Both the position numbers and the translations under genes were made by a program. The notes beneath the pieces are model-generated. The model searched no databases, was not told the origin of the DNA, and saw only the letters and a list, made by a program, of their open reading frames with translations. DNA of 64,000 bases from an uncultured Ruminococcus sp. (GTDB taxonomy: Bacteria > Bacillota > Clostridia > Oscillospirales > CAG-272): contig CAYSEF010000002.1 in assembly GCA_964430105.1 (NCBI GenBank), forward strand, positions 10,411 to 74,410, read 5' to 3'. Shown piece after piece: positions 43,052 through 60,895 of the stretch; within the stretch, counting starts at the first letter, position 1; each line of letters starts with the position of its first letter.

Positions 43052-43098
43052 TTTCATACAGTCATTTGAACCGTTTATACAAACGAAAGGACACTATC

Positions 43099-44763
43099 AT
43101 GAAAAAACGCACGACCGCTGTTATTGTTTATCTTATCGCAGCAGTCCTTCTCATTTGCGGAGTTTATTATGTAACGCTCCCGCCAATATCGATTTATTCC
43201 GGCGCATTTTGGACTTTCATGTTCTTTATTGATGCCGTAATATTCGTTTCTTACTTTATAATCGGCCTTATCACGGGGAAATTTTTCACTGAAACTGTAA
43301 AAATGCCCTCAGGTAATATAGATTTTCGCACATCAATGAACGGTCATAAGCCGAAATTCTATAAAGTACAACTTGTTTTAACTATTGCAGTTATCGTTTT
43401 CCTCGTTATCGGCTCGCTGATCGGCTCAGAAGTTTTCCGTGCAAAAACCTATTCCTCACTCATAAACGTACAGGAAAAGGATTTCGCAGATACTATTGCA
43501 GAAACTGAATATGTTTCCGATATTGCACTCATGGACACAGCTTCCGCAAGGATAATCGGTGCAAGAACACTCGGTACACTCTCCGATCTTGTATCGCAGT
43601 ATGAGGTTGCATATGATTACACGCAGATAGCAATGACCGACGGTGCTTCATCTAAGCCGTACAAGGTAGCTCCTCTTGAATATGCTTCATTTATCAAGTG
43701 GCTCACAAACAGCAGTTCAGGTATACCGGGTTATGTAAAGGTTGATGCAGTTGAATTTTCCGCTGAATTTGTCCGTCTGTCAGATTCTTATATCAAATAC
43801 AGCCCTTCCGCTTATTTCAGCCAGGATTTGTACCGTGCACTCAGATTTGCATATCCGACTAAGATTTTCGGCAGTATCTGCTTTGAAGTCGATGACAACG
43901 GACATCCGTATTGGGTAGCTTCTACCATGAAGCCAAATGCAGGTCTTTTCGGTGCAATGGACGTTGACACAGTTATCACACTTGACGCTTGCACAGGAGA
44001 AACTGTTGAATATATCCCATCCGAATCTCCTGACTGGATCGATATCGTTTATTACGGCAATCTCATTACTCGAAAATATGACTGGTACGGTATGCTGTCG
44101 GGCGGTTACCTCAATTCTGCCTTCAGTCAATCGGGATGCGTTGTTACAACAGATGATTACGGTTACAAAATCATTGGCAATGACGTTTATATTTTCACAG
44201 GTGTGACTTCGACCGCAGGAGATGAGGCAAACATCGGCTTTATCCTTGCAAACAGTCGCACAGGCGATTATCTTTATTTTGCAGTTCCGGGTGCTGAGGA
44301 ATATTCCGCAATGTCAGCGGCAGAAGGCTCGGTTCAGCAATACGGCTACAGAGCTTCATTCCCGTCTCTTGTAAATGTAGGCGGTGAGGCAACCTATATC
44401 ATGGTATTAAAGGATGCCTCCGGTATTGTAAAAATGTACTCTATGGTAAACATGGAAAACTACAACATTGTAGTTACAAGCGATACTCAAGATGATGTTT
44501 TCCGTAAATATAAAGCCGCACTTCGTCAAAACGGCTCTAAGGTTTCCTCAGATGAGCTAATTAACGAAGTGATAACAGTTGATGAGATACTCTACATTAC
44601 GATGAGTGGCGAAACTACTGTTTATATAAAGGCTCCAACAGGCATTTATGGCATGGAATTTGACGAAAGTGTATTATTCATCGAAGAAGGTGACAAAATC
44701 ACCGTAGCATATTCCGAGAAAAACGAAAATGGCGTGACACGCATAAACAATATCGTAAAATAA
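43099..44763 (+). CDS. Membrane protein of unknown function (3 N-terminal TM helices + ~430-aa extracytoplasmic domain)
   Basis: The ATG at 43099 follows AAAGGA. MKKRTTAVIVYLIAAVLLICG... No family recognised. Confidence 0.7.
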   Translation: MKKRTTAVIVYLIAAVLLICGVYYVTLPPISIYSGAFWTFMFFIDAVIFVSYFIIGLITGKFFTETVKMPSGNIDFRTSMNGHKPKFYKVQLVLTIAVIVFLVIGSLIGSEVFRAKTYSSLINVQEKDFADTIAETEYVSDIALMDTASARIIGARTLGTLSDLVSQYEVAYDYTQIAMTDGASSKPYKVAPLEYASFIKWLTNSSSGIPGYVKVDAVEFSAEFVRLSDSYIKYSPSAYFSQDLYRALRFAYPTKIFGSICFEVDDNGHPYWVASTMKPNAGLFGAMDVDTVITLDACTGETVEYIPSESPDWIDIVYYGNLITRKYDWYGMLSGGYLNSAFSQSGCVVTTDDYGYKIIGNDVYIFTGVTSTAGDEANIGFILANSRTGDYLYFAVPGAEEYSAMSAAEGSVQQYGYRASFPSLVNVGGEATYIMVLKDASGIVKMYSMVNMENYNIVVTSDTQDDVFRKYKAALRQNGSKVSSDELINEVITVDEILYITMSGETTVYIKAPTGIYGMEFDESVLFIEEGDKITVAYSEKNENGVTRINNIVK

Positions 44764-44769
44764 TAAAAC

Positions 44770-44824
44770 AACGCGGTATTCACTCTGCTCTTACACTGAG
44801 CTGTGAATATCGCGTTATTTTTTT
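44770..44824. terminator. Bidirectional terminator separating the membrane protein gene from the phage-like cluster
   Basis: AACGCGGTATTCAC/GTGAATATCGCGTT (one mismatch), with a T-run on the right and an A-rich left flank. Confidence 0.7.
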
Positions 44825-44898
44825 GACTCTTTCTCTTGATAAATTATATGCTGATTCTCATTGAACTATACCTGAATTTTCAGGAAATAAGATTATAT

Positions 44899-45993
44899 TC
44901 ACCCAACCTCAACAAGTGGTGTCACCTGCTTTACTTCACCGTCTTTTCCGATATACAAGCCCGATGCAAGCCTTATTTCACCATTTACACCGATATAAAT
45001 ATTCGACAGTATCGTTTTAAGAAGCTCGCTCGTTACATAACACGATCTGCTTGATGTTGCACGACCTACTGCACAAACTCTGTATTGTACAGTTTCAGCG
45101 CCAAGTGGTATCGTATCTGTAAATGAAGTCGAAGTACCCGCATAAATCAGCGTATAATCTCCTCCGTCAAGTGATCTTTCAAGCACAAATCCATTGGTTG
45201 CAGGGTAGTTTCCGTCTTCGATATACTTCCATGTGAGCTTTGACGGGGCACGAACAATGGGTGTTTCGCACTGAAGCTCAAACGGTGGACGTGGTCTGTT
45301 TTGATATGACACCACATAAAACGGACTCTCTACCTCAACCAGCTCGATATAATCCTCTCTTGCATCGTTTGCTGATTCGTATACACCCATATATAAAGTA
45401 ACGTAATACATCGAGCCTACAGCATGACTTTCAGATACATATCTGCTTACCGAAGCACTTGTGAATTTAGCAGTATAGACATTTGACATCGTCCAATAAT
45501 TCACATCAGCGTTTTTATAATGCTCTATCAGCCCAACACCGGCAGTAGGTCTTCCAAGCGGATCTTTTATACTCCACGATATAGTATGTGCCATCTGATT
45601 TCTCGGGCCGGGGCAAGTCAATGTGACCTCGGGACTAACGCTATCAAACGATGTACGCCAGGTGAAATCCATACCGTCAGTAGAGGCTTCATCTATTTGG
45701 CGATCGTCATAAAAAACGTACATTCCCGAAAGATTCACAGTTTTCACGTTATCGTTATACGGAAAAGTAACGCTCTGCTTTTCTCCAAACGGCTCTGCGT
45801 TTATCAATCTCGTATATCCGTTGTATTTCAGCGTGAGCTTAACAGATCCGTTGTAAAACTGTGCTGTTGAGCTTTGATAACCGAGTGTGACATACAATGT
45901 TTCGCCATCTGTTTCAACTCGCAGGTATCCTGAAAAATCGCTGTACCTTGAACCAAGCTTTAATTGCTCAACACTGCGAAATAACAGTTTCAT
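44899..45993 (-). CDS. Phage tail fibre/receptor-binding-like protein with an FN3-like domain
   Basis: It is the last gene of the tail module. The FN3-like segment is ...PSKLTWKYIEDG...GFVLERSLDGGDYTLIYAGTSTSFTDT...YRVCAV. GGAGG RBS. Confidence 0.55.
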   Translation of the reverse strand: MKLLFRSVEQLKLGSRYSDFSGYLRVETDGETLYVTLGYQSSTAQFYNGSVKLTLKYNGYTRLINAEPFGEKQSVTFPYNDNVKTVNLSGMYVFYDDRQIDEASTDGMDFTWRTSFDSVSPEVTLTCPGPRNQMAHTISWSIKDPLGRPTAGVGLIEHYKNADVNYWTMSNVYTAKFTSASVSRYVSESHAVGSMYYVTLYMGVYESANDAREDYIELVEVESPFYVVSYQNRPRPPFELQCETPIVRAPSKLTWKYIEDGNYPATNGFVLERSLDGGDYTLIYAGTSTSFTDTIPLGAETVQYRVCAVGRATSSRSCYVTSELLKTILSNIYIGVNGEIRLASGLYIGKDGEVKQVTPLVEVG

Positions 45994-46008
45994 CTTTATC
46001 CTCCCACG

Positions 46009-46713
46009 TTAATTCTCGGACAGCAGTACAAACAGCTCACCATCACCTAAAGATGAAGGAAGTGACGTACCGTAACCGATATTTCTGACTACCTGCTTTC
46101 CTGTAGCATCAGCTGCCGCACGAAGCTCACCCGTCATTGAGCCACCTGAACGAAGCAGATAATTCATCGCCGCGACTCCACCAAGCATATTTGCATTTTC
46201 AGCAAGTCCAACCGTCGCAAGAGCATCTACAGCCGAGGTTACGATGCCACATTTGTTTCTGTCAGTTCTTGTGTCTGTTATCATATCTGACGTTACTTCT
46301 ACAGCTGAAGCAGGTACAGTAATCTCAGCGATAACAAGATCCTTGATGCTGTCATTATTCAATGCACCACCATCTGTTAAGACAAGCTTAAACTCTCCTG
46401 CCAACGAATTGAGCCTGAGCATAACGGAATATGTTACTCCCTTTGCAAGAGTGAACGTCTGTGCAGTTTTCTGCCATGCCATATACCCTCTTATCCATGC
46501 GATTCCCGATGATATTTCAACAGTATATCCTGATTTTGGCACAACCTTGAAGCTGTCCTCACCACATATACCATCCTTATAAAAGCACTCTATCATCTTC
46601 GCAAAGAATACCGAATCAACTGCCTTATCCCCTCTCGGAAAGCCTCCGACAGTTTCTACTACCTCCGTTGAATCGAACATACCGCCATACACCGGCAAGG
46701 TTATTTCTGCCAT
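46009..46713 (-). CDS. Phage tail fibre-like protein
   Basis: MAEITLPVYGGMFDS... is an N-terminus common in siphophage fibre/baseplate proteins, and the C-terminal LLRSGGSMTGEL is a fibre motif. The ATG at 46713 follows GAAAGGAG. Confidence 0.55.
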   Translation of the reverse strand: MAEITLPVYGGMFDSTEVVETVGGFPRGDKAVDSVFFAKMIECFYKDGICGEDSFKVVPKSGYTVEISSGIAWIRGYMAWQKTAQTFTLAKGVTYSVMLRLNSLAGEFKLVLTDGGALNNDSIKDLVIAEITVPASAVEVTSDMITDTRTDRNKCGIVTSAVDALATVGLAENANMLGGVAAMNYLLRSGGSMTGELRAAADATGKQVVRNIGYGTSLPSSLGDGELFVLLSEN

Positions 46714-46789
46714 TGTAAAACTCCTTTCTAATATTGTATTCGAGGACACATCTGCAAAAAATGAGCCTCTTTGAATTTCTTAATTTCCT

Positions 46790-47821
46790 TCACACCGACA
46801 TTACACGTTTGACACGTCTTATTTCTTCACCAAATGACGGGCATATCAGGCAAAGTCCGTTTTCGTAAACTGTATCCACTGCTGTAAGTCGCAAAGCATA
46901 GGACAAACCAAAGCCCTCATCAACAACGTCACAAATATCTCCTATCAAATAGTCTTTACCATATCTTGGTAGCGCATCTGTGTCCGTTTCAGCAGTCACA
47001 TACAGTCCCCTCGGATATTTTGCCAAAGTTTCCGTACCTCTGATCCTCAGCGCAGTCTGATATTCCGTTTCATCGGCAAATTTTGAAGGTGCAATATCGG
47101 TTGCTTTTTTATAAATCTCACGCTTTTCACCGTTTTCCGATCTATCGACTGTTACAACAGTACCATCGCTTCCCTCAACATATGCTACATTTTTGAAATC
47201 GCTCGAATCCTGCTCAAGTGATATCGAAACTATATTTCCAAATGATGCCGAAAATATAGCAGGCTGTGTCGCTTCAATCGACTCCGAAGACCTATCGATT
47301 CCCTGCACTATACGGAATATCGGCTTCATTCTCTCACTGTCAAGTGTTATTTTATACGATGCGCCGTATGGTTTTAGCACAGAATACACCCAGTCAGACA
47401 GATTATCCCACTCATAAGGCAATACTGCTGTATCGGATATCACTGCCGATTCACCGATAATTATATCAAGTCCTCGTAAATTTGCTTCTACTGCTGACAC
47501 TACCGCCTCTGTTACAGTTCCGCTGTACGATGCCTTGCCTATCATTCGTCTGTCACTTAAAAGCACCTCAAGAAGATGCCCACCAAGCTCACAGCTGTTG
47601 TCCTCATCGCTTACAAGATACTCTATTCTCCCACATCTTTCTCCATCCGTTACATAAACAGCCTTCTCGAACACAGCTATCATTTCTCGCGGAAAATGCA
47701 GAGTGAATGAGCCGATTTCAAAATATCTTTCCGACCATACTACAGATGTAAGTGAATCTATCGGGCCAAATATCAGCGAAAAATCCTTGTCCAAAAGGAA
47801 TATCTCAGTCTTTTGATGCAT
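46790..47821 (-). CDS. Siphovirus ReqiPepy6 Gp37-like tail protein
   Basis: MHQKTEIFLLDKDFSLIFGPIDSLTSVVWSERYFEIGSFTLHFP matches my memory of the Gp37-like N-terminal signature. The ATG at 47821 follows GAGGTG. Confidence 0.65.
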   Translation of the reverse strand: MHQKTEIFLLDKDFSLIFGPIDSLTSVVWSERYFEIGSFTLHFPREMIAVFEKAVYVTDGERCGRIEYLVSDEDNSCELGGHLLEVLLSDRRMIGKASYSGTVTEAVVSAVEANLRGLDIIIGESAVISDTAVLPYEWDNLSDWVYSVLKPYGASYKITLDSERMKPIFRIVQGIDRSSESIEATQPAIFSASFGNIVSISLEQDSSDFKNVAYVEGSDGTVVTVDRSENGEKREIYKKATDIAPSKFADETEYQTALRIRGTETLAKYPRGLYVTAETDTDALPRYGKDYLIGDICDVVDEGFGLSYALRLTAVDTVYENGLCLICPSFGEEIRRVKRVMSV

Positions 47822-47829
47822 ATTGCACC

Positions 47830-48696
47830 TCACATTCCGTAATACAGTGGCGTGAATGTTATCTCTGCATCAACAAATTCCTCACCGCTGTCACAAGTAA
47901 TGCTGACTGAATTATCTCCCGGAATAAGACTGAAAAATCTGCTGTTTTTATCGAACACAAAGCTTCGTTCGCCATTTTTAGTGATATTTTTTCGTGCCTC
48001 TCTCGTATCTATTATAAGAACATCTCCGTCATCAAGAGTTATCGGACATTTTACAAAATCCTCTCCGCATACAATACCCGGATGAACGACAGCACCTCCT
48101 GAAGCAGCGATCTTTGCAACCAGTCCACATTCACCGTCACCGGTATTTTTGAGTACAGCGCTGTCTGTTGTGCGATACATACCTGAAACAGAGCCTGAAC
48201 CGGCCATAAAATTCATCGGAAATGTCAGCATCGGTGCAACGTCACGGAATGGAACAACAACATCCTCTGCGTCACGGAAAAATACTCCTGGTGCGATAAA
48301 CAAAACATTCACCTCTGTACTGTCGTAAAATGTACCACGATTAAATTCAGCTTCGTCATACGGTATAACAGATATTTTCCTGTGTACGCCACCGAACGCA
48401 ACATCAAGCTCACATTCAGCCTCAGGGTCAAGCATTGATACAATAAGTCTGCGTACTTCATCTGCTCTTTCAGGGAGAATTTCAAAGCTAAGTCCTATTT
48501 CACGCTCTGCAAAACGCTTTTTCTGTGGATATCCGCCTACCCTGCTTGCGTACGGTGCAAGTACCACATCAAATCCTGCCGAACCGAATCCTGTCATTCC
48601 ACCTTCAATAAGACGGCAATCTGCTGTAGGGGATATCTCAAGCTCTCGAATTCGCCCGTACTTCTTTGAAATCAGTTTTATTAAGTAGTCTGTCAT
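47830..48696 (-). CDS. Distal tail protein (Dit, Sipho_tail-like)
   Basis: It lies directly after the TMP with a 4-nt overlap. Size and beta-rich sequence are typical. Confidence 0.6.
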   Translation of the reverse strand: MTDYLIKLISKKYGRIRELEISPTADCRLIEGGMTGFGSAGFDVVLAPYASRVGGYPQKKRFAEREIGLSFEILPERADEVRRLIVSMLDPEAECELDVAFGGVHRKISVIPYDEAEFNRGTFYDSTEVNVLFIAPGVFFRDAEDVVVPFRDVAPMLTFPMNFMAGSGSVSGMYRTTDSAVLKNTGDGECGLVAKIAASGGAVVHPGIVCGEDFVKCPITLDDGDVLIIDTREARKNITKNGERSFVFDKNSRFFSLIPGDNSVSITCDSGEEFVDAEITFTPLYYGM

Positions 48697-49481
48697 AAAC
48701 GGAATATCGCCTCACTTTCACGTCGTATTCTTCTTGCAATCCTGTACGGTGAGTTTGTTTCATCACGAAGATAAATATTCTGCGTTACAGCTCTGCCACT
48801 TCCCTGACCGACAGATGAAACACCTCTCATCGCTGTAACTCCATAAACAGAATTCATTGCTCCGCTTACAAAAGGCGAACCGTCCAAAATACCTTCTGCG
48901 ATACCTCGTGATATCATAACTCCGACCTCATCTCTCATAAGCCTTGACGGTGATGATATTTGATAATATGCCTTCAAAGCTGTATTTGCTTCCTCTGCAA
49001 CCTGTTTTATCGCAGAAACGACCTCAGCCCCCGCCGAACGTATACCGGAAGCTACTCCTGACATGATATTTCCACCAATAGATGACCACCCACTTGACTG
49101 AAATGCTGATATTGCCTGTGACGCTATCAAGCTGACCGCAGAGGTTACAGCACTGCCACCTGATGACACACCGCTTGATATTGCAGAAACCGCCTGTGTG
49201 CCTGCCGAAGACCAACCTGCTCCTGTAAATGAAGCTATCGCAGCTGTAGCAGTATTCTGCATCGTTGAAGAAATATTTTCTGCCATTGCCGTAACGGATT
49301 CAGATACTCCCGACAACGCTTGTGCCATGGAAGCAGATATTCCGTCAGCTGCAAACGCCTGTGCCATAGAGGTATTTATTCTTGTGCCAAGCTCGCGTAT
49401 CTGAAATTCAAGCGAAGTTGCCGATGCCGAAAAGGATGAAGTATCTAACGCAACTCCTATAACAATCGATCCATCTGCCAT
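48693..49481 (-). CDS. Tape measure protein, unusually short (262 aa)
   Basis: It sits between the chaperones and Dit. The Ala/Ser/Gly-rich repetitive sequence (…SASMAQA…, AVSAISSGVSSGGSAVTSAVS…) is typical of TMPs. Confidence 0.65.
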   Translation of the reverse strand: MADGSIVIGVALDTSSFSASATSLEFQIRELGTRINTSMAQAFAADGISASMAQALSGVSESVTAMAENISSTMQNTATAAIASFTGAGWSSAGTQAVSAISSGVSSGGSAVTSAVSLIASQAISAFQSSGWSSIGGNIMSGVASGIRSAGAEVVSAIKQVAEEANTALKAYYQISSPSRLMRDEVGVMISRGIAEGILDGSPFVSGAMNSVYGVTAMRGVSSVGQGSGRAVTQNIYLRDETNSPYRIARRIRRESEAIFRL

Positions 49482-49496
49482 AGTTTTTCTCCTTTC

Positions 49497-50108
49497 TTAA
49501 GGCTTGTTTGAATTATTCTGTATTTGCTCTCTCTTTGGCAAACGAACTGCCGCTCTTGCACGTCTTAACTGCTTTCGCAAGCCATCGTCCGCTATTTTCG
49601 TCACGTCAATGCTCCTCAATTCAACCGTCTGCATAAATGCACAATCTCGTGGCAAGCATCGCAATAATGCCATAAATTTCCACCAATGCATATTGATCTC
49701 GTTCAAATCTATGCCATACACAGCCATAAACGATGCAAAAATACGTTCGCTGTCTATCTCAAAATCGAATACAGGCATATTTTTTGACGAGCTTTGTGCG
49801 TGTTTTGCGTTATTTTCACTTGTATACAAAGCATCACCGCATAGTGCAAAGCATCCGGCTTCACGAATAAATTCCTCTGCCAACGAACGATTCTTACACA
49901 AAGCCGAACGGATGGCAGGACAGACCAGCATTGCCGCACAGTCTGCCACTGTTAAACCATCAAGTTCTGTTTCAAGCAACTCGGTAAAGAGTATCCAGCG
50001 ACGAAAATCAGTTATAAGCTTGTACGAAATACCACCAACCGTGATACTGCTCGGCAATCTGTCGCAAATTAGCGATGCTTTTCCACTCACCTCACCGACT
50101 GACATCAC
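49497..50108 (-). CDS. Phage Gp15-family tail assembly protein
   Basis: ...ITVGGISYKLITDFRRWILFTELLE... resembles Phage_Gp15. It lies immediately upstream of the TMP. Confidence 0.6.
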   Translation of the reverse strand: MMSVGEVSGKASLICDRLPSSITVGGISYKLITDFRRWILFTELLETELDGLTVADCAAMLVCPAIRSALCKNRSLAEEFIREAGCFALCGDALYTSENNAKHAQSSSKNMPVFDFEIDSERIFASFMAVYGIDLNEINMHWWKFMALLRCLPRDCAFMQTVELRSIDVTKIADDGLRKQLRRARAAVRLPKREQIQNNSNKP

Positions 50109-50515
50109 ATTACCACCGCCTCAGCACCGCCAAGCTCAGCGATACGAGTGGCGAATTTTTCGGTCACACGCTTATCAACATCCTCACGGAATTTTTTCAA
50201 AGCTTCAAGCTGTTCATTCACGAACATTATAAAATCAACATACGCTCCCATGTGTGCCTCAAAACTGCTTCTGTCACCACAAATAACCACTACCTTATCT
50301 TCTCCGAAAACTGCTTTGAAAAATTCACCTATCATTCCACATACACGCTCTATTTCTTCAGGTGTATTCTTTTCGCTTCCATCTGTAGCTTCATAGTTTT
50401 CACGCAATTCCTCAAGCGCAAGGTTTATTCGCTTCATACATTCGCTGTCACTGATATCAAAGTAGTGTTCGGCACCATTCCAGCTCCATGTGTGGTTTCT
50501 TATCGTGTTTTCCAT
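50105..50515 (-). CDS. Tail assembly chaperone-like protein
   Basis: Acidic ~136-aa protein between the tube gene and Gp15. The ATG at 50515 follows AAGGAGAG. Confidence 0.5.
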   Translation of the reverse strand: MENTIRNHTWSWNGAEHYFDISDSECMKRINLALEELRENYEATDGSEKNTPEEIERVCGMIGEFFKAVFGEDKVVVICGDRSSFEAHMGAYVDFIMFVNEQLEALKKFREDVDKRVTEKFATRIAELGGAEAVVM

Positions 50516-50541
50516 CGTTGCTCTCCTTTCCGTTATTTGAA

Positions 50542-51021
50542 TCAATCAGCAGTAAATACACCGCTGGCTTTTACAAAAGTTCCTGTAATAATATCGCTTA
50601 CCGCCTTCATCGTGCCTGTATAGCATAGTGCATCTGTGCCTTCACCACATTCGTCGGGAATAACGGAATAGGTTCGCTTTACAGCATGATATACTCCCTC
50701 TGTAGAAGTAACATCGAACAAATCTACAGCTATAATATCAACCCTTGCCTCCTCGCCTACAAGCTCACGATCTGTTATAAGACGTATCTTATCGATAACG
50801 GCGTTTCCGGCGTAAACCTCAAGCTCATAATCGATTTCAGGTGCATAGCCCGTCACATCTGTTCGCTTTGTTATCTCATGAATATATCGTCGTGAATAAT
50901 TGATCGGATTTTTTGTTTCCATAAATTCGGTAAAGCCTTCGCCTATCAAGGACCAAATCGGGCTTTCCGCAGTTCCTGTGTTCATGTAATGCTGTCTGTC
51001 AGCTCTTTTTACAATAGCCAT
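50542..51021 (-). CDS. Major tail (tube) protein
   Basis: 159 aa. Assigned by position and by the N-terminal ...YMNTGTAESPIWSLIGEGFTEF... pattern typical of siphophage tube proteins. Confidence 0.6.
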   Translation of the reverse strand: MAIVKRADRQHYMNTGTAESPIWSLIGEGFTEFMETKNPINYSRRYIHEITKRTDVTGYAPEIDYELEVYAGNAVIDKIRLITDRELVGEEARVDIIAVDLFDVTSTEGVYHAVKRTYSVIPDECGEGTDALCYTGTMKAVSDIITGTFVKASGVFTAD

Positions 51022-51038
51022 TGTTTACTCCTTTATTT

Positions 51039-51431
51039 TTAATTTTCACAAAACCAACTGAGTCTGTATGATGCACGATACTCCTCCTCGCCATTTTCGT
51101 AGACCGCAGATTTTGAAGCACCGTTCATTATCTCAACCTTGCCGTCAACCAGAGAAGACAGCGAGGTTTCCTTTATATATCCGGAAATATCTGAAAAAAG
51201 CTTCACTGCATCAAGCCTGTCACTAACCGAACGTCCTGCACAGCGTACCCGTATTTCAAACGGTATTCCCATAATGTACGAACCGTCTATGTATTCACGC
51301 AATCTTTCTCCACCGCCGATAAGCCATATCGTTGCACAATTTTCACGCCATACCTCAGGAATAAACGTCACTTCTCCGTCAATTCCATTGAAGTAATCGC
51401 ATAATAGCTCAGGTAATCTTATTTCATCCAT
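51039..51431 (-). CDS. Head-tail joining/minor capsid family protein (tail-terminator position)
   Basis: Assigned by position. 130 aa with a GGAGG RBS. Confidence 0.5.
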   Translation of the reverse strand: MDEIRLPELLCDYFNGIDGEVTFIPEVWRENCATIWLIGGGERLREYIDGSYIMGIPFEIRVRCAGRSVSDRLDAVKLFSDISGYIKETSLSSLVDGKVEIMNGASKSAVYENGEEEYRASYRLSWFCEN

Positions 51432-51814
51432 ATTTTACCTCCTGCATTGACCGTGCGATTTTTCCCTGACGATGATGAAGTAAGAGCAGAACCGGCTATA
51501 TTCGCCCATTTTGCACCATCGATTGCCTTTGCTGCTTCAAACCAACGTGCACAAGCGTGTGGATGATGCTTTCGATTAAATTCACGATCTGCATAGTAAC
51601 ATTTGCTTGCATGATTGGCAGACCACGTCACTTCACCTCGATTTCCATCACCTGAGGCGTGTCCTGAATTACATAATGCACCCGTATTGTACGGTACAAA
51701 TGGTTCGCAGGATGCAAGTATCGCTGATTCTAACGCTCTAAGTGCTGTCGGAACTCGCCCATCAATAGAATGAATGATCGCGCCAAGCTCTGTCGTAATA
51801 TTGATATTTATCAT
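51419..51814 (-). CDS. Minor capsid/HK97 gp10-like head-tail joining protein
   Basis: ...FVPYNTGALCNSG...VTWSANHASKCYY...KHHPHACARWFE... resembles the minor-capsid family signature. Confidence 0.55.
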   Translation of the reverse strand: MININITTELGAIIHSIDGRVPTALRALESAILASCEPFVPYNTGALCNSGHASGDGNRGEVTWSANHASKCYYADREFNRKHHPHACARWFEAAKAIDGAKWANIAGSALTSSSSGKNRTVNAGGKIWMK

Positions 51815-51824
51815 CCACAGTACC

Positions 51825-52172
51825 TCACTTTAATTTCAAGCGAATATGCCCTGTATCAGCACCGCCGTTAAAATATCCTACTTCATTTACTCTCGCCACA
51901 ACTTCATCAGCTTCACCTGCACGAAGTACGCAAATATCACCGTAATGCGCCATCGGAAATTTGCAAGGCTCACCGTTTTTATCATAGCATCTGCTTCGGC
52001 CCGTAAAATAGTACACCGTCACTCCCGCTTCCTTTTGCATATCAGGCTCTACTGTAAATATCTCTCTTACGAGGACATCCTCGAGGGTGTATGAATCGTA
52101 AGATGCTTCATAACCCTCATCCTCGCCGAGAAAACGTCTGTATTCGATCCTCCCGTTAAGAAAACCGTTCAT
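51825..52172 (-). CDS. Head closure/head-tail adaptor-like protein
   Basis: Assigned by position. The ATG at 52172 follows GGAGG. Confidence 0.45.
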   Translation of the reverse strand: MNGFLNGRIEYRRFLGEDEGYEASYDSYTLEDVLVREIFTVEPDMQKEAGVTVYYFTGRSRCYDKNGEPCKFPMAHYGDICVLRAGEADEVVARVNEVGYFNGGADTGHIRLKLK

Positions 52173-52202
52173 ATTAAACCTCCGTTTCCCGTATTTTGCC
52201 AA

Positions 52203-52499
52203 TCAGAACCATCTTGTAAGAAGTCCGCATCGCATAAGACGATTGTACGCCTTTGGAGAGATACGAAAGCCTCCGACAGAATGCTTCCATGTATCGGCAT
52301 AAGTAACACTCACATCCCCTACAGATTCAACCTTTACCGCTGTATTTTTGCTTCCCTCGGCTGAATCCATAAAATCAAGCTGTTCATGCACCGCAAGCTC
52401 AAACTGATCACGCTGTTTATCTGTCATATCAGCTTCTGTAAGCGGATATATGAACGACAGCAGTGTATCTCGCCCTCTCTTGTCTGTTTTTTCAGCCAT
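52203..52499 (-). CDS. gp6-like head-tail connector protein
   Basis: 98 aa, directly after the MCP gene. The helical N-terminal part is typical. Confidence 0.5.
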   Translation of the reverse strand: MAEKTDKRGRDTLLSFIYPLTEADMTDKQRDQFELAVHEQLDFMDSAEGSKNTAVKVESVGDVSVTYADTWKHSVGGFRISPKAYNRLMRCGLLTRWF

Positions 52500-52520
52500 A
52501 GCTTCACCTCATCAGATAAA

Positions 52521-53612
52521 TCAGCCGATATAGCGCACTGCAAGCTCAGGATAGATAGTCTTGAATGCATAAAGCACATCCATTGAAAGTATCTCACGCT
52601 TGAACTTCATATCATAGCCTCGTACAACACGGAGAGATATACCGTTGTATGTTGTAACATAGGATTCAACGCCTGCCGGTGTCTGCAATGGTCTTGTGAT
52701 AAAAGCAAATGCATCCGGATGGAATACAAGATTTGCTGAATGGCTCGGCAGAAGCTTAACCTCAGCATTTGCAGAAACAGTCGCATTCGGGTATACCTTG
52801 ACCGTCACCTCATTACCGGAAATCACGGCATTTTCAACAACTGCAAATGTTGCACCTGCGATACTCAAAATATCCCCCTTTGTAAGTGTACCTTCTGTGC
52901 TTGCTTTAAGAGTTATAGCAGAAGCATTTACAGCATTGTTCTTGACCGTCAATGTTCCACTATATGAAACTGAATGTGTTGGAACAGCCTGAGACATATA
53001 GTTTTCAATGCCAAATACCTTACCTATAGAGCCTGTACGAAGCGCAGTGGAAGAACCACACTTTTCAGCGTTAACAATAGCCGGTACCTGCTTGAGCTTT
53101 GAGGCCGCAAGTGGATTCCAAACTGCACATCTTGCACCTGCAGGTACCTTCTGCATATCAAGTGCATAGGATGCCGCCGCAATATCGTCAAGTCCATCGG
53201 GAGTTTCGCCTGCTGTACCCGCAAAGGTCGGAATATCCTTATAAAGGGAAAGTCCCTCTGTGTTTATCTTCTCAGCAAGAGCAGCGGCAGCCGGTTCGAT
53301 AAACATACGGATAACGGAATCAAAATCACACGCCGCCTCAATAGCTCCAACCTGCATATCAACCGTTGCAAGATGATCGAGCTTTACATCGACAGTGTCA
53401 TTTTGCATATTCTGCGGAGTAACTCCGGAGGACTGATCAAATTCGCTTGCAGTAAGCTTTACAGGACATCTTACCGACACTGTATCGCCCTGCTTTGCCG
53501 CACCTCCATCGATATTTTCCTTGTAAATCAGATTCGGAAAAACGAGATTGTCGATAAGTCTGGGGAGAGTTTCTCTTGCGACCTGCTTAACTGAAAATTC
53601 AAATTTTGCCAT
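52521..53612 (-). CDS. Major capsid protein (P22-coat-like/HK97-fold family)
   Basis: 363 aa, after the scaffold gene. ...LPRLIDNLVFPNLIYKENIDGGAAKQGDTVSVRCP... resembles the P22 coat family. There is no protease gene, which is consistent with scaffold-type assembly. Confidence 0.7.
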   Translation of the reverse strand: MAKFEFSVKQVARETLPRLIDNLVFPNLIYKENIDGGAAKQGDTVSVRCPVKLTASEFDQSSGVTPQNMQNDTVDVKLDHLATVDMQVGAIEAACDFDSVIRMFIEPAAAALAEKINTEGLSLYKDIPTFAGTAGETPDGLDDIAAASYALDMQKVPAGARCAVWNPLAASKLKQVPAIVNAEKCGSSTALRTGSIGKVFGIENYMSQAVPTHSVSYSGTLTVKNNAVNASAITLKASTEGTLTKGDILSIAGATFAVVENAVISGNEVTVKVYPNATVSANAEVKLLPSHSANLVFHPDAFAFITRPLQTPAGVESYVTTYNGISLRVVRGYDMKFKREILSMDVLYAFKTIYPELAVRYIG

Positions 53613-53650
53613 AATTTTAATCCTTTCTTTAATTGAAAATTTTTCCTTGA

Positions 53651-54079
53651 TTATATTTTTTTAATGCGTTTATAAAAATCTCTGTCGTTCATGCTGTCAG
53701 CATCGTTTGCTTCATTTTTGTGTGGCATACCTATACGCATTTTGGACAGTGCTGACTTCGACTGTGCTTTGTCCTCGAAAAGATATGATGCGTTCGTTTT
53801 CAGTGCTTCTATCTGCTCGGAAATACCGTGTATACCATCCTCATCGTATGTCACACTCTGCATATCTACAAGCTTCATGACAAGCTCACGATTCTTTACT
53901 CCCGCATTGTCAAGCTCACGTTCCATCTCATTCTGTACACGCACTGACATTATCTCGGCTTCATGCTGTTGCTTAAGCTCAGTCATATCACCGATATCCA
54001 TACCGTTTTCCACTGCTTTTGCAAGAAATTCTTCATATGACAGCTTCTCACTGCCAAAAATCTCCGAAATATCCGGCAT
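53651..54079 (-). CDS. Capsid scaffolding protein (GP20-like)
   Basis: 142 aa, helical and charged, lying between the portal and MCP genes. Confidence 0.6.
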   Translation of the reverse strand: MPDISEIFGSEKLSYEEFLAKAVENGMDIGDMTELKQQHEAEIMSVRVQNEMERELDNAGVKNRELVMKLVDMQSVTYDEDGIHGISEQIEALKTNASYLFEDKAQSKSALSKMRIGMPHKNEANDADSMNDRDFYKRIKKI

Positions 54080-54103
54080 ATTTTAATCCTCCTTAAAATT
54101 CAT

Positions 54104-55492
54104 TTAATAGCTCGTAGCCATTTCGTCTGTTATCCATTTTTTTCGGTATTCCTCCGCTGTTCTTACGCCTGCTTCAAGCTCACTTAAATCTCTTGCACGA
54201 TGTGTTTCGGAATCTATGAAATAAGAATCATCAAAGGTCACGCTTACTTCTGTATCCACATCGACCGGAATATCAAACAGCTCTGCACCTGCCCATAAAA
54301 TCGCTCGAACTACACTGCGAATAAAGGCTTCAAGCTTTTTTTGATGCTTGACTGCGTTCTGTCGCATATCCTGTCGTTCACCCATGTATTGTGTTGCAGT
54401 GAGCCTTGTTCGACCATCAAGTCCACTGAAATTATAGTGATGTGTGCCAAGACCACAGCGGAACGAAAGATAATTTAGCTGTGCCTGTACTGCATCGCTG
54501 TTTTCCTGCGTTCTCAGCTCAGGATTATGCTCCATTATCATTGGATGCTCCGAAAAATCACCATCGCCAAGAGGCACGAAAAGCTGTTGTGCTACATCAT
54601 CAGGTGTAAGAATATTCCCGTTTTCATCACGCGATATGAGCGACTGGTTGAGAAAAACCTTCTTTCCACCAAGCTTTATATCTCTGCAAAAATTGTTGAA
54701 CGCAAGATCTACACCCTTTAGACAGTCGATAGCATCAGCAAAAACCGAAACTCCCAAACCGGTGCTGTCGTCATAATTGTTCTGAATATTCGGGCTGAGA
54801 ATCGCAAACAACGGAACAAATGAGCCTGTATGTATTTCGGAAGCCGTAAATTCCATATCCCTCTGCACAAGCTCGCCATTTTCACGAAAATAGAATTCGT
54901 TTCTTATGACATATCCATCATTTTCCAGCTCGTGCGTTTCGATATAAACATATTCCTCACCATGCAGTATACCCTCGGATATAAACGCTGCTTCTGTAAT
55001 TTTGCCGTTACGCACACTCAGCGGTATGATATGTGAAGCATCGACCCATTCAAACGATATTGCACCGTCACCATCGACAAAAAGCGTACCGTCATCACCT
55101 ACAGTAAGTCCGTCAAGACGAAGAATAGCGGCACCTGTTCCAACAGCAAATGCTTTTTCCACAAGACGGTTTGCCTGTGTCATAAAATCTGTTCTGCGGA
55201 AAACCTTACCTACAAACTCTGCACCGGCTTCATCCTCAACTCGTATAACAGTACGGTCATTAAGAAGCAACGATGCCCAGTCCTCGGCAATTTTCTTTGC
55301 CATATTCATACGATACAGCTCTCTTTTGACTACATTTCCACCATTCGTATTTTCGTAAAATTCGTGAAATGAGCGTTCATGCCCCTTCCACCATGCTTCC
55401 CATTCGGCGATTTTTTCGTAATACGCAGAGCATAGCGAAAAATCTTCCCCGTATCTTGCGCATAAAATTTCTCTGATCTCCTCGCCGATCAT
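54104..55492 (-). CDS. Portal protein (SPP1 Gp6-like)
   Basis: 462 aa. ...WEAWWKGHERSFHEFY...RELYRMNMAKKIAEDWASLLLNDRTVI... is typical of this portal family. Confidence 0.8.
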   Translation of the reverse strand: MIGEEIREILCARYGEDFSLCSAYYEKIAEWEAWWKGHERSFHEFYENTNGGNVVKRELYRMNMAKKIAEDWASLLLNDRTVIRVEDEAGAEFVGKVFRRTDFMTQANRLVEKAFAVGTGAAILRLDGLTVGDDGTLFVDGDGAISFEWVDASHIIPLSVRNGKITEAAFISEGILHGEEYVYIETHELENDGYVIRNEFYFRENGELVQRDMEFTASEIHTGSFVPLFAILSPNIQNNYDDSTGLGVSVFADAIDCLKGVDLAFNNFCRDIKLGGKKVFLNQSLISRDENGNILTPDDVAQQLFVPLGDGDFSEHPMIMEHNPELRTQENSDAVQAQLNYLSFRCGLGTHHYNFSGLDGRTRLTATQYMGERQDMRQNAVKHQKKLEAFIRSVVRAILWAGAELFDIPVDVDTEVSVTFDDSYFIDSETHRARDLSELEAGVRTAEEYRKKWITDEMATSY

Positions 55493-55528
55493 TTTATCAA
55501 CTCCTTTCTTTTTGTTTGCTTGTTACCA

Positions 55529-56824
55529 CTACAAATACTTTTTCATATACCTCTCGATAGAATATTCCATCGCATCAAGTATATCGATATCCGAGGTAAA
55601 ATTGTCAAGTCGCTTATCCGTCGTTGACTTTTCATCCCATACAGCGGATGCCAAACCCTCTCGCAGGATACTGCATTCTCGAAGAAGCTTGAATCTCCCC
55701 GTTGATAAAAGCGAATTGACAAATGCAATACGATCGGCAATAGGGCGTTTAGCACAATCCATCACCGTTACTGTATCACCCCTCGCAGCCAAAAATCGTC
55801 GAAGGCCCGTAATAAGATACTGTGCTTCACTGTCTGCAAAAACATAACGCACCTGTACATCTCGCCATCGCTCACGAATTCCTTCAAGAAAATGCAGAAA
55901 TTCGTTGTTTATCCTCGTCGGATCGATCTCGCCTTTATCCCCTGCAACTGCACGTTCACTGATAACACACAGCTTTCGCTCTTTTACAAACGCTGTCGCA
56001 ACGAATGTAGTTTTTGATCTGTTACCGCCAAAATCCACGCCAATGTTAATAAATTCCATTTCATCGACTGAAATATCATCTACCGTAAATAATGCGGGAG
56101 CATCGGCAAATTTGCGATAAATCAAGCCCTCTGCCGCACATCGCTGTCCAAGAATATCTCTGCGATACCAGACGGAATCCTTATCATATTGAGCCGTTAT
56201 TTCCGTTATTCTTTCCTGCGGAATAAGCGGATTATCAAAAATGGTGAAATGTGCGTAATTATAATAATTTCCGCCAAGGCTTTCTTCTGATGCATATCTG
56301 TCAAGGTAATCCTTATATATCGGATGCGACGGATTTGATGGATTGAGATCCCAAAATATACGCCGTTTTTTTGCCGCAAGCTGACGGTTACACGCCTCTT
56401 TGATGAACGAATCTGAGTGTAGGTTGATTTCTGTGGCTATCCACATACCATACGAATTACCACGAATACGCTTGTAAGAATCAGAATTCTTTCCGCCCGA
56501 AAAAATTACTATCCTCTCTCCGAGTTTTGTATTCACAATAAGCGCATCGTTTCCTCGATATCGTGACCACCTGCATCGACCTTCAAATATATTGCACAGA
56601 CCAAGCCCGTTGCAGTCGCCAATATTCAGCTTTGCATTGCCGAGAGTTGAACCGCTTGCAAGGTGATATTTGTCAGGTGAAGCTTCAAGTAACGCAGCAA
56701 AGACAAATACATTGTCAACTGTTTTTCCCGCACGCACCGCACCTTCTGCAACATTTATCGTACAATCATACGCACGTCGCATATATTCACGATGCTTGTC
56801 GCCGAAAACATAATTCATGCTCAT
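55529..56824 (-). CDS. Terminase large subunit (PBSX-type)
   Basis: Walker A GAVRAGKT, a C-terminal nuclease-like region, and an ATGA overlap with TerS. Confidence 0.85.
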   Translation of the reverse strand: MSMNYVFGDKHREYMRRAYDCTINVAEGAVRAGKTVDNVFVFAALLEASPDKYHLASGSTLGNAKLNIGDCNGLGLCNIFEGRCRWSRYRGNDALIVNTKLGERIVIFSGGKNSDSYKRIRGNSYGMWIATEINLHSDSFIKEACNRQLAAKKRRIFWDLNPSNPSHPIYKDYLDRYASEESLGGNYYNYAHFTIFDNPLIPQERITEITAQYDKDSVWYRRDILGQRCAAEGLIYRKFADAPALFTVDDISVDEMEFINIGVDFGGNRSKTTFVATAFVKERKLCVISERAVAGDKGEIDPTRINNEFLHFLEGIRERWRDVQVRYVFADSEAQYLITGLRRFLAARGDTVTVMDCAKRPIADRIAFVNSLLSTGRFKLLRECSILREGLASAVWDEKSTTDKRLDNFTSDIDILDAMEYSIERYMKKYL

Positions 56825-57198
56825 GACCCATCCCCCTCGAAGATATCCGCACGCAGAGTTTCTATCTCAGCAGAAGCTGTCACTGCACGACGTGATTTTC
56901 TCCCGAATATACCATGCACATCGAACAGCTCGAAATACAGCTTTATCGCCGGAACACTTCCCTTCATGGCTGTTTCGACAAGTGAATGAAGCATATACGG
57001 TGCATAAATACCACTCATGCGAGAAGTCATATTTCCCGCACATTCCGCAAATGAATCATCAAGTATCCACGAGGTAAATTCTTCCTCAGAAATGCCATAT
57101 TCTTCAAGCAGCTCCTCAAGCGAACGTCCACTTTGCAGCATCGCATATGCAAGAAGCATTTGCTGTGATTTACAGTTCAGCGAAGATTGTATCTCCAT
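56821..57198 (-). CDS. Terminase small subunit-like HTH protein
   Basis: The ATG at 57198 follows AAAGGAGG. MEIQSSLNCKSQQMLLAYAMLQSGRSLEELLEEYGISEEEF... contains an HTH, and it lies directly upstream of TerL. Confidence 0.6.
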   Translation of the reverse strand: MEIQSSLNCKSQQMLLAYAMLQSGRSLEELLEEYGISEEEFTSWILDDSFAECAGNMTSRMSGIYAPYMLHSLVETAMKGSVPAIKLYFELFDVHGIFGRKSRRAVTASAEIETLRADIFEGDGS

Positions 57199-57482
57199 CG
57201 TTTTCCTCCTTTCGTTTCTCGCTGTGCCTATATTGTAGCATGATGCAAGCATATCCTTCGCCCCGTAAAATTCCCACAAGCTTCCCACGAGTTGTTCACA
57301 ATTCCAAAAACAAAAAATGGAGGATAAATCCCCCATTTAATGACATTTTTCAAATATTTTATTTCTAAAATCCCACTTTTCACCGATTAGTGGTGAATCA
57401 GCACCAATTTACCCCAACCACCTCATCTTTGCCGAAAAAACGCAAAAGAATTTCGTTACAATTTCGTAATAATTTTTGATAC

Positions 57483-57537
57483 AAAAAAATCCCGTCACAC
57501 GACCGAGCATCAAGCCGATGACTGTCGTAATGACGGG
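57483..57537 (-). terminator. Intrinsic terminator upstream of (insulating) the phage-like cluster
   Basis: On the minus strand, CCCGTCA...TGACGGG with an inner ACGAC/GTCGT extension, followed by U7. Confidence 0.7.
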
Positions 57538-57661
57538 TGTAAGAGGAAGGCTAAATTAAAACTACACTATTACCAGTTGTATTATACTCCACATTTTGTG
57601 TTATGTCAAGCATTTTCTTCAATATATTGAAAATAATTACAATTAAAATTAAATTAACTGC

Positions 57662-58375
57662 TTAAAGTACGACAGCATCAACAGTCATAATAGTACGTTG
57701 TTTATCTGCTCCACGCATTTCAACCGCATAATCAAGCTCCATCGAACCACCACATTCAAAATCGAAGCTTCCCCTGCATTTTTTCGTGTATACAGCCATC
57801 TCAAACGCCATTATGGGAGTCTGATAAACTGAAATATGGCGTACTCCTTCTTCACATACGATATTGTTCAGCACAGAGCCTGTACGATATATCGAAACAG
57901 AATTCGGTCTTGCCGGATCGTAAACTATTACAGATTCGGTTTCATCCATAGATTCGCCCTCGATATACGATATCTCAATAATTTCACGTCCGCCTTCTGT
58001 TCTTCTGCGAAGCTCGCCGATTGTACGGTAAACGTAAACATCATCCTCATCTTCCGGTTGTATTTCCTGAAGCTTCTGCCATATTTCCTCAAACATCTGA
58101 CGTTCTTCATCAGACATATTTTCGCTTTCGTCGGATTCATCTTCGCCTGCGTTGTATATCTCTGTTTCAGATAATCCCGCATCACGATCAAGCATATCCT
58201 GAACAGTAGCGTACATCTCCTCAGGATAATCCTCAGGATTAGCGTGCTTTTCTTCCTTAAACATATCGCGCTTATTTGAAAAGAACGACTGCGTAATCGC
58301 ATTAGTTCTGTTGTCAGGTAAAATGTGCTTTGACGTAAGTGTCAGCTTAACCATTCTTTTATCTGCGTTATCCAT
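57662..58375 (-). CDS. DUF1934 (YwiB-like beta-barrel) protein with a long acidic insertion
   Basis: ...IEISYIEGE...VIVYDP...VSIYRTGSV...ISVYQTPIMAFEMAVYT...MELDYAVEM... matches the DUF1934 pattern as I remember it. Confidence 0.55.
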   Translation of the reverse strand: MDNADKRMVKLTLTSKHILPDNRTNAITQSFFSNKRDMFKEEKHANPEDYPEEMYATVQDMLDRDAGLSETEIYNAGEDESDESENMSDEERQMFEEIWQKLQEIQPEDEDDVYVYRTIGELRRRTEGGREIIEISYIEGESMDETESVIVYDPARPNSVSIYRTGSVLNNIVCEEGVRHISVYQTPIMAFEMAVYTKKCRGSFDFECGGSMELDYAVEMRGADKQRTIMTVDAVVL

Positions 58376-60866: not shown

Positions 60867-60895
60867 TTGACAAAATATTTATCGTGTGCTATAAT
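60867..60895 (+). promoter_or_regulatory. Consensus sigma-A promoter of the small plus-strand module
   Basis: TTGACA (60867-60872), 17 nt, then TATAAT (60890-60895). Confidence 0.7.

Follow-up and report, generated by a model that had tools for sequence, protein, structure and literature searches.

A 64-kb stretch of the genome of an uncultured Ruminococcus sp. (contig CAYSEF010000002.1, positions 10,411 to 74,410; hereafter the window) carries a 12.3-kb cluster of phage-type packaging, head and tail genes, which an earlier note on this DNA had proposed as a candidate gene transfer agent (GTA)-like locus. Here we describe the genes and control sites of this cluster, its relatives in other genomes and the readings that they permit. 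All positions are those of the window, and L numbers are labels of the related loci with which it was compared.

Gene content and borders of the cluster

The cluster comprises 17 co-oriented open reading frames (ORFs) that run on the minus strand from 57198 to 44899, tightly packed and all intact. After refinement of the starts, each of them has an ATG start codon and, 5' of it, a GGAGG-like Shine-Dalgarno sequence; the gaps between genes are at most 76 nt, and overlaps occur between TerS and TerL (4 nt), genes 08 and 09 (13 nt), genes 11 and 12 (1 nt), and the tape-measure and Dit genes (4 nt). The intact frames, GGAGG-type ribosome-binding sites and tight coupling described in the earlier note are thus confirmed by the ORF calls. 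Profile searches against Pfam, NCBIfam, PHROG and PDB assigned only packaging, head and tail functions to the cluster, and its genes are as follows, in the order of transcription.

56821-57198, minus strand: gene 01, TerS, 125 aa (PHROG 24579 terS, 2.8e-6; true start at 57198 behind an AGGAGG ribosome-binding site)
55529-56824, minus strand: gene 02, TerL, 431 aa (Terminase_3; NCBIfam PBSX-family TerL, 108 bits against a cutoff of 105)
54104-55492, minus strand: gene 03, portal protein, 462 aa (SPP1_portal, 2.1e-14; A118-type portal, 3e-47, below the curated cutoff)
53651-54079, minus strand: gene 04, scaffolding protein, 142 aa (Phage_scaffold, 6.5e-15)
52521-53612, minus strand: gene 05, major capsid protein of the P22-coat type, 363 aa (P22_CoatProtein, 5.9e-41)
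52203-52499, minus strand: gene 06, head-tail adaptor, 98 aa (PHROG 541, 7.9e-12)
51825-52172, minus strand: gene 07, neck/connector protein, 115 aa (position only; synteny conserved)
51419-51814, minus strand: gene 08, neck protein of the Minor_capsid_2 family, 131 aa (PF11114, 7.3e-11; PHROG 556, 4.5e-22)
51039-51431, minus strand: gene 09, neck or tail-terminator candidate, 130 aa (position only; synteny conserved)
50542-51021, minus strand: gene 10, tail tube protein, 159 aa (PHROG 3099, 2.2e-43; PDB 11ok 'Phage tail tube protein', 6e-10)
50105-50515, minus strand: gene 11, DUF6673 protein at a tail-chaperone position, 136 aa (PF20378, 1.1e-9; PHROG 4450)
49497-50105, minus strand: gene 12, Phage_Gp15 protein at the second chaperone position, 202 aa (PF06854, 1.4e-30)
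48693-49481, minus strand: gene 13, miniature tape-measure protein, 262 aa (PHROG 1686, 5.6e-25)
47830-48696, minus strand: gene 14, distal tail protein (Dit), 288 aa (SPP1_Dit, 6.8e-8)
46790-47821, minus strand: gene 15, Gp37-like/Tal-type tail tip protein, 343 aa (Sipho_Gp37, 7.6e-33; Prophage_tail below threshold)
46009-46713, minus strand: gene 16, distal tail/baseplate protein, 234 aa (PHROG 9534 and PHROG 1220, labelled 'head protein')
44899-45993, minus strand: gene 17, distal protein, 364 aa (PHROG 10993 'Hoc-like', over residues 159-331)

The Walker A motif, the WIATE motif and the nuclease Asp motifs of TerL are invariant across 49 distinct homologues, and TerS has a sub-threshold match to HTH_Tnp_1_2 in Pfam. 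In PDB, the coat protein matched P22/Sf6-like 'Gene 5 protein' chains only, with 7sp4 and 5l35 as its best solved relatives (3e-6); a PDB sequence search with the portal gave no match. Most gene labels of the complete particle suggested in the earlier note are supported by these profiles, with three reservations: (i) genes 07 and 09 match no family (in Pfam and PHROG, and for gene 09 also in NCBIfam), (ii) the 'fibre-like' label of genes 16 and 17 is positional, and (iii) the tape-measure protein is only 262 aa long and covers only the C-terminal ~200 positions of tape-measure PHROGs that extend over 1,000-1,600 positions. We draw a tail role for gene 16 from its position after Tal. Gene 17 is the least conserved gene of the cluster (52% identity to the sister species versus ~80% for core genes; ratio of nonsynonymous to synonymous substitution rates, dN/dS, 0.18) and is a candidate for the receptor-binding protein.

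As the earlier note had stated, the cluster lacks integrase, replication, holin and endolysin genes, none of which was found by the profile searches. No integrase, replication, holin or lysin gene was detected in the other window ORFs tested either, which represent housekeeping genes or one defence system, and homologues of the holin and amidase carried by a subfamily of related loci were not found in the window. Profile matches agree with the previous description of housekeeping neighbours on both sides: a 565-aa membrane protein and uvrA adjoin the cluster at one end, and DUF1934, MatE and PHP-domain proteins are encoded at the other. The absence of flanking direct repeats was also reproduced, since a search over positions 43900-58000 returned only short chance repeats and none bracketing the cluster as an attachment (att) site would; the window contains no tRNA gene to serve as such a site. 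Of the two bracketing terminators proposed earlier, one is the following feature.

44770-44824: bidirectional terminator that separates the cluster from the convergent 565-aa gene (folding at -26.8 kcal/mol, z = -7.1)

The second, a hairpin with a U-run at about 57478-57535, folds too; however, it ends a promoter-to-terminator unit of its own (57609-57478) and does not simply belong to the neighbouring gene.

Regulatory genes and control sites

According to the earlier note, nothing else in the window was phage-like and no regulator was present. This part of the description has to be revised: a pair of small regulatory genes lies 3.6 kb from the cluster, and in the window lineage three host genes separate it from the operon. 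The pair and the control features upstream of TerS are listed below.

60869-60918, plus strand: promoter TTGACA-17-TATAAT (60869-60897) and box GAACATTCGTTC (60907-60918), read from the sequence
60951-61259, plus strand: CxxC...CxxC (Zn-ribbon-like) protein, 102 aa, first of the regulatory pair (ORF)
61252-61608, plus strand: late transcriptional activator (RinA/ArpU/DUF1492-like) resembling sigma-70 region 4, 118 aa (PHROG 248 'transcriptional activator', 8.3e-10; PHROG 36, 5.4e-9)
57478-57609, minus strand: small RNA (sRNA)-like or leader unit with a consensus promoter (57609-57581, 12/12), a transcript of ~95 nt and a terminator hairpin
57315-57338, minus strand: second hairpin, likewise with a U-run, flanked by the sRNA-like unit and the TerS promoter region
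57232-57288, minus strand: TerS-proximal control region with two GTGGGAA repeats (57288-57282 and 57277-57271), 11 nt apart, and a -10-like TACAAT (57237-57232)

The box GAACATTCGTTC is situated 10 nt 3' of a perfect promoter, over the predicted transcription start and upstream of the two small genes. GAAC-N4-GTTC is the core of the LexA/DinR 'Cheo box' of Firmicutes. Only two perfect sites of this kind occur in the window, at 60907-60918 and 61495-61506, and boxes with one mismatch occur at chance frequency. The second perfect site lies inside the activator coding sequence, where 16 nt are identical to the promoter-proximal site; its half-sites are kept in L004 (2816) and L017 (546) with the central four bases different, which suggests selection at the DNA level.

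The 102-aa CxxC protein has no Pfam or PHROG family. Both members of the pair are homologous to the pair located upstream of TerS in L026 (E = 3e-10 for the CxxC protein and 2e-7 for the activator), where the protein encoded directly upstream of TerS matches Sigma70_r4 and DUF1492. The activator accompanies the cluster in nine group-A loci (L093, L096, L001, L004, L006, L011, L017, L018 and L053); the promoter and box also precede the orthologous pair in most of these, the box being perfect in L093, L004, L006 and L017 and carrying one mismatch in L001, L011 and L018. Downstream of the activator, a further, strong promoter (TTGACT-17-TATAAT with a TG extension, 61621-61649, plus strand) opens a region, 61621-63039, encoding a 223-aa protein of no family and a DUF1643 protein (PHROG 3230, 4.6e-23), and both proteins are kept beside the regulators in several relatives.

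Other loci of the family carry their boxes closer to the operon. In the subfamily whose regulators adjoin TerS (~60% coat identity; L026-L036, L039, L042 and L047), the promoter spacer contains one box and another follows ~37 nt downstream, and in many other loci the promoter just 5' of TerS has the form (A/T)TGACA-GAACnnnnGTTC-...-TAyAAT. Across 45 non-redundant loci, the density of perfect boxes in the 1.3 kb that precede TerL is 24 times that of the remaining sequence (33 in 55 kb versus 17 in 684 kb; Poisson ~1e-33), and the boxes inspected in that remainder mostly belong to relocated regulators or to more distant copies of the same promoter. The GTGGGAA repeats in front of TerS may be the binding site of the activator. 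No lexA or recA gene is present in the sequences of the collected loci, in which only S24-type repressor-like matches were seen, in unrelated loci.

The sRNA-like unit sits between DUF1934 and the TerS control region. In its predicted transcript, a CCUUCCUCUU (anti-Shine-Dalgarno) motif is left single-stranded and a hairpin whose loop reads GCUUGAU precedes a U-run; the promoter spacer of the unit contains a small palindrome (ACACAAAATGTG). The unit, including the GCUUGAU loop, is kept in four other group-A species (L093, L017, L018 and L070), with compensatory change at 6 stem pairs. No Rfam family was assigned to it, and an E-value search over 57150-57700 returned chance-level matches only. 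It could specify an RNA that acts in trans to lower the translation of the GGAGG-led genes; alternatively, it could be an attenuated leader. The second hairpin is kept in L093 with changed stem bases.

Distribution, inheritance and origin of the family

Homologues of the coat protein number more than 1,400 and grade from 100% down to 59% identity; nearly all of them are 361-369 aa long, and all come from metagenome-assembled genomes that bear the labels Oscillospiraceae, Ruminococcaceae or Clostridia. When one genome was scanned for each species, 58 species-level genomes with a relative of the coat protein emerged, about 45 of which have the 17 genes, or most of them, in unchanged order, as do many metagenome contigs. 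The locus family is spread across uncultured Oscillospiraceae/Ruminococcaceae-type Clostridia of animal guts.

The conserved synteny that the earlier note had suggested looking for was found in these ~45 genomes, and at least 10 species share the chromosomal site of the window, with PHP-MatE-DUF1934 on one side of the cluster and the 565-aa gene and/or uvrA on the other. Among them are the sister species, whose coat is 83% identical, and near-identical strains that come from other samples. Other clades use other sites: between the pyruvate kinase and TRAP DctM genes, downstream of YidC-Jag, or next to Ddl. All flank genes tested are housekeeping genes, with no integrase in any flank tested. 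For all 17 genes, ORF lengths are kept within narrow limits in the family (tape-measure-like protein 236-289 aa, coat mostly 361-373 aa, TerL mostly 428-465 aa), and no decay is visible in ~50 loci with 55-100% coat identity. Strain-specific or frameshifted copies, named in the earlier note as evidence to the contrary, were therefore not observed.

Two variants depart from the organization seen in the window. In the first, a Phage_holin_4_1 gene and an Amidase_2 or Amidase_3 endolysin gene lie directly 3' of the gene-16 homologue (L026, L028, L029, L031-L036, L042 and L047; e.g. L034 11704-12886); gene 17 is absent, and the two regulators are immediately 5' of TerS. The flanks of this subfamily are YidC-Jag, Ddl and a Zn transporter, again with no integrase. 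The second, a variant of ~10.5 kb (L006, L010 and L064-L067; e.g. L010 12643-13149), lacks the Gp15, tape-measure and Minor_capsid_2 genes; a very basic ORF of 51 aa is all that separates the DUF6673-like gene from Dit. Its tube protein is divergent (34-43% identity), its head, terminase and distal tail genes are intact, and it looks like a further step of tail reduction.

These observations bear on the proposal that the cluster is a mobile satellite or mini-phage, similar to capsid-forming phage-inducible chromosomal islands (cfPICIs) but with tail genes, that would use a helper's recombinase and replication in trans and package itself. The size of ~12 kb and the presence of an activator, TerS, TerL and capsid genes do resemble capsid-forming satellites, IMG/VR classes the cluster as viral, and the authors of a murine transductomics preprint saw the same resemblance in their 12.7-kb candidate (bioRxiv 10.64898/2026.07.08.737213). 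However, no integrase, primase/replicase, excisionase or att repeats were found in the window or in any of more than 40 loci, the same site and the same host genes are occupied in species whose uvrA genes differ by 13-21%, and within a species the cluster has diverged as much as its flanks. The separation of the regulator pair from the operon by three host genes is also unlike one excisable unit. We consider the satellite proposal very unlikely.

Selection on the cluster was assessed at two distances. Versus the sister species, dN/dS is 0.03-0.21 for the 13 of 17 genes with estimable dS, values to be taken as rough upper bounds because the dS between these species is saturated, and 0.05-0.06 for the flanks; the expectation of the earlier note that dN/dS would be below 1 was thereby borne out. 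Versus a near-identical strain, the cluster shows 34 synonymous and 12 non-synonymous differences, with dS of ~0.012 in the cluster and ~0.013 in the flanks. For six cluster proteins, pairwise distances track the values obtained with the neighbouring 565-aa host gene (Mantel r = 0.96, exact p = 0.004, n = 6), and cluster distances also follow the ranking of full-length uvrA distances. The pattern points to vertical inheritance of the cluster with its host under purifying selection.

An inert prophage remnant in which decay has not yet begun would also lack lysogeny and replication modules and, as in this genome, lysis modules, and the LexA-type box proximal to TerS is indeed degenerate here. 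Intact copies of the 17 ORFs in ~50 loci with 55-100% coat identity, dN/dS well below 1 for each gene with an estimate, and conserved regulatory sites make this explanation extremely improbable.

The relation to full-size phages is distant. The best coat identity among 50,697 sequenced phages is 33-38%. In IMG/VR, all entries with at least 55% coat identity are no longer than 14.2 kb and consist of the cluster alone, and entries with 48-51% identity are phage genomes of 30-37 kb. Accordingly, no relative with at least 55% coat identity carries the same genes inside a full prophage, an arrangement that the earlier note had named as counting against a GTA. In the 32-kb phage relative L087, a Sigma70_r4 activator is followed by a 299-aa TerS (helix-turn-helix, HTH, plus Terminase_2), TerL, portal, a 516-aa Phage_min_cap2 protein, a scaffold of up to 255 aa, coat, tube, Gp15 and an 885-aa gene at the tape-measure position. 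The compact family lacks the Phage_min_cap2 protein, and its TerS, scaffold and tape-measure proteins are much smaller; the scaffold of 142 aa versus up to 255 aa is at most suggestive of a small capsid capacity. The TerS and tape-measure-like proteins of the window have no significant pairwise similarity to their positional counterparts in L087, and for this reason the shortening is described as architectural, from position and PHROG coverage, and not as a traced deletion.

Two ready-made classes were discarded. A tailocin is ruled out by the conserved capsid, portal and terminase, and an intact temperate prophage by the lack of integrase/att, replication and lysis modules, full-size phages being found only at 48-51% coat identity. 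The earlier judgement that the locus is neither a tailocin nor a cfPICI nor an ordinary prophage stands, given that capsid, terminase and tail genes are present and integrase and att sites are absent.

Several other features were observed in the neighborhood of the cluster. The 565-aa protein (43066-44763, plus strand), convergent with the cluster, has N-terminal transmembrane segments and no Pfam, NCBIfam or PHROG family match; its gene adjoins the cluster in L001, L017, L053, L071, L093 and L096 (70-86% identity). A three-gene Shango anti-phage defence system lies directly upstream of uvrA (33992-39844, plus strand; SngA 3.4e-39, SngB 4.4e-158, SngC 6.9e-241), and SngC adjoins uvrA in L010 as well. 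The 5' region and first 68 codons of uvrA are included in a perfect 256-nt tandem duplication (39854-40109 and 40110-40365, 100% identical) that generates an extra 87-aa ORF at 39908-40171 and is either a recent real event or an assembly artefact. The sole Rfam match at the gathering threshold in the whole window is a T-box leader (13570-13778, minus strand, 128.7 bits) upstream of an 872-aa ORF (10860-13478), presumably an aminoacyl-tRNA synthetase. A 510-aa protein with a SipL/SPOCS domain (30606-32138, minus strand; 8.6e-9) suggests that the host is a spore-forming Clostridia-type organism.

Possible function and comparison with known systems

We hold it very probable that the cluster is a domesticated element under selection, and we think it probable, on the evidence of its genes and their inheritance, that it is a chromosomally fixed, phage-derived 'viriform' of the GTA kind. 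That it gives rise to DNA-filled particles carrying host DNA is rather likely, and productive transfer of genes to recipients is possible but doubtful.

The control sites and gene content would fit the following course of events. In the undamaged cell, host LexA would occupy the GAAC-N4-GTTC box of the promoter at 60869-60918 and, in most relatives, also a box within the TerS promoter, as judged from the motif and its conservation. DNA damage would remove LexA and allow synthesis of the Zn-ribbon protein and the sigma-region-4-like late activator, which would act on the promoter just 5' of TerS and switch on transcription of the 17-gene operon. TerS and TerL, with their conserved catalytic motifs, would then fill P22-type capsids through the portal; because the locus has no replication or excision function, the host chromosome would be the only abundant packaging substrate. 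The neck proteins are predicted to join the head to a very short non-contractile tail that carries Dit, Tal and two distal proteins at its end; the last of these proteins is fast-evolving, as expected of a receptor-binding protein. By the rule of thumb of ~0.15 nm of tail per tape-measure residue, a tape measure of 262 aa would give a tail of roughly 40 nm. Release of particles would depend on lysis genes encoded elsewhere in the genome; a holin and an amidase are observed at the 3' end of the cluster in one subfamily.

The same genes could instead specify a PBSX-like killer particle, that is, a domesticated defective phage that kills competitor strains by tail adsorption, with packaging as a by-product and no delivery. 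TerL belongs to the PBSX terminase family, the small sigma-like late activator resembles Xpf of PBSX, the SOS-type control implied by the boxes is the mode of PBSX and pyocin induction, and a fast-evolving distal tail protein fits strain-specific targeting. The authors of the work on FpGTA, the GTA of Faecalibacterium prausnitzii, raise the same option for their element (PMC12946183). Nevertheless, the cluster has no sheath or other contractile-tail gene, and a siphovirus-type tail of ~40 nm is without a known killing mechanism comparable to that of R-type particles. Capsid, portal and terminase are conserved as strongly as the tail genes, with invariant catalytic motifs, so a DNA-filled head seems hardly dispensable, and some relatives that have lost the tape measure still retain head and terminase. 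On balance, the killer-particle explanation is unlikely, though clearly ahead of the satellite and remnant explanations.

Several points weigh against assigning the locus to the GTAs: (i) the locus is known from its genes alone, (ii) the weak HTH-like match in TerS would be compatible with sequence-specific packaging, (iii) no lysis genes lie within the 64-kb window, (iv) SOS control is typical of prophages, PBSX and pyocins and not of the best-studied GTAs, (v) the boxes are assigned to host LexA by the Firmicutes consensus and not by the host's own, and (vi) the TerS-proximal box of the window is degenerate (CGAAGGATATGCTTGC), so that LexA would act only via the regulator pair here. The evidence for co-inheritance is likewise not uniform. 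A Mantel comparison of core genes with the PHP and DUF1934 flanks gave r ~0, on alignments that were partial high-scoring segment pairs with near-saturated, star-like distances, which is our explanation for this value; and homologous recombination moving the whole region could produce the fixed position and the linkage to neighbours as well.

Capsid-mediated movement of bacterial DNA in the gut has recently been shown to be common in this bacterial group: gut Ruminococcaceae/Oscillospiraceae display GTA-like packaging of host DNA fragments of 4.6-8.9 kb, and the only locus identified so far is that of FpGTA in Faecalibacterium (PMC12946183). The locus described here is a strong candidate for the genes behind such packaging. 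A broader proposal, which we put forward tentatively and hold to be somewhat less probable than its negation, is that the family represents a third independent domestication of a phage into a GTA, after those of the Rhodobacter capsulatus GTA (RcGTA) type and FpGTA; that it was fixed across a large uncultured radiation of rumen and gut Oscillospirales; that it forms the missing basis of the short-fragment packaging reported in Ruminococcaceae/Oscillospiraceae; and that it was wired to the SOS response via LexA boxes and a captured phage late activator. If so, a damaged cell would turn its chromosome into short-tailed transducing particles from which its kin gain repair templates or new alleles, and the reduction would have proceeded stepwise from a phage, through a compact cluster that kept lysis genes in cis and a split locus, to variants devoid of the tape measure.

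The family is of use in three ways. Its 17 genes are recognisable by the coat protein, the miniature tape measure and the LexA-type boxes, so candidate GTA producers could be called from metagenomes. DNA damage provides a concrete induction hypothesis, and if the SOS link is true, antibiotics and other genotoxic stress would raise gene flow in rumen and gut Clostridia. The variants also offer a natural series for the reduction of a phage to a host-owned, organelle-like device.

Comparison of the locus with known systems reveals partial likeness to each of them. Similarly to cfPICIs, it is small and encodes TerS, TerL, portal, scaffold, coat and head-tail connectors; cfPICIs, however, possess an integrase, a replication module and att sites but no tail genes, and the reverse is the case here. 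PBSX of Bacillus subtilis is, like the locus, a defective phage-like element of Firmicutes with a PBSX-family TerL and a small sigma-like late activator. PBSX is SOS-inducible, spans ~28 kb, has a contractile tail and encodes an Xre repressor as well as lysis genes of its own. The locus differs by its 12.3-kb size, its siphovirus-type miniature tail and its apparently direct LexA-type boxes, and searches of the cluster revealed neither a sheath gene nor a repressor or lysis gene. PBSX packages random host DNA of 13.4 kb (PMC12946183).

RcGTA is similar to the locus in several respects: (i) it is a morphogenesis-only cluster of ~12-15 kb and ~17 genes, (ii) the genes follow the order TerS, TerL, portal, capsid, neck, tube, chaperones, short tape measure, distal tail, hub and fibre, (iii) integrase and replication genes are absent, inheritance is vertical under purifying selection, and the tail is short, and (iv) regulator and lysis functions are located at other loci. 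The RcGTA-type hallmark recognized in the earlier note therefore holds for size, order and content. It does not extend to homology: a P22-type coat with a scaffold is found here, as opposed to the HK97-type coat and prohead protease of RcGTA, and neither a prohead protease in the cluster nor an RcGTA chain among the PDB matches of the coat was detected. As judged from these components, the likeness is one of analogy and not of homology. The two systems also belong to different phyla and differ in their control, which is by CtrA, GafA and quorum sensing in RcGTA and apparently by SOS/LexA and a phage late activator here.

A 12.7-kb cluster of Butyricicoccaceae QXXE01, described in a July 2026 preprint, contains an activator, TerS, TerL, capsid genes, a holin and an endolysin; the contigs of its host are abundant in the virus-like particle fraction, and its authors leaned, without comparative analysis, to a satellite-like reading (bioRxiv 10.64898/2026.07.08.737213). 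Compared by description only, this architecture is that of the holin/amidase subfamily, whereas the window lineage has no lysis genes in cis and its regulators are displaced.

FpGTA (PMC12946183, Nat Commun 2026; preprint 2024) is the nearest published case by host, being a GTA-like element of Oscillospirales-type gut Clostridia, and it makes outdated the statement of the earlier note that no such GTA locus is established in Clostridia-type Firmicutes, although it derives from another phage lineage. It shares with the locus an operon of ~10 kb that starts with TerS, TerL, portal, scaffold and major capsid protein, the lack of an integrase, and the possibility that lysis genes occupy a second locus. 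FpGTA is podovirus-like, with 10 ORFs in operon I and the baseplate, fibre and lysis genes in a second operon; in contrast, a single operon of 17 ORFs here includes tube, tape measure, Dit and Tal. The coat of FpGTA carries an N4-gp56-family annotation, whereas the coat of the window is of the P22 type and scores 21.9 bits against the N4-gp56 family TIGR04387 (cutoff 60). Particles, ~9 kb of DNA and proteomics stand behind FpGTA, and RcGTA packages host DNA, whereas only genes speak for the locus. By the description of FpGTA and the coat-family score, the locus is set apart as a different lineage. GTA-like elements of this clade have thus already been published with FpGTA, and the locus is a newly recognised, widely distributed lineage of GTA-like system among them.

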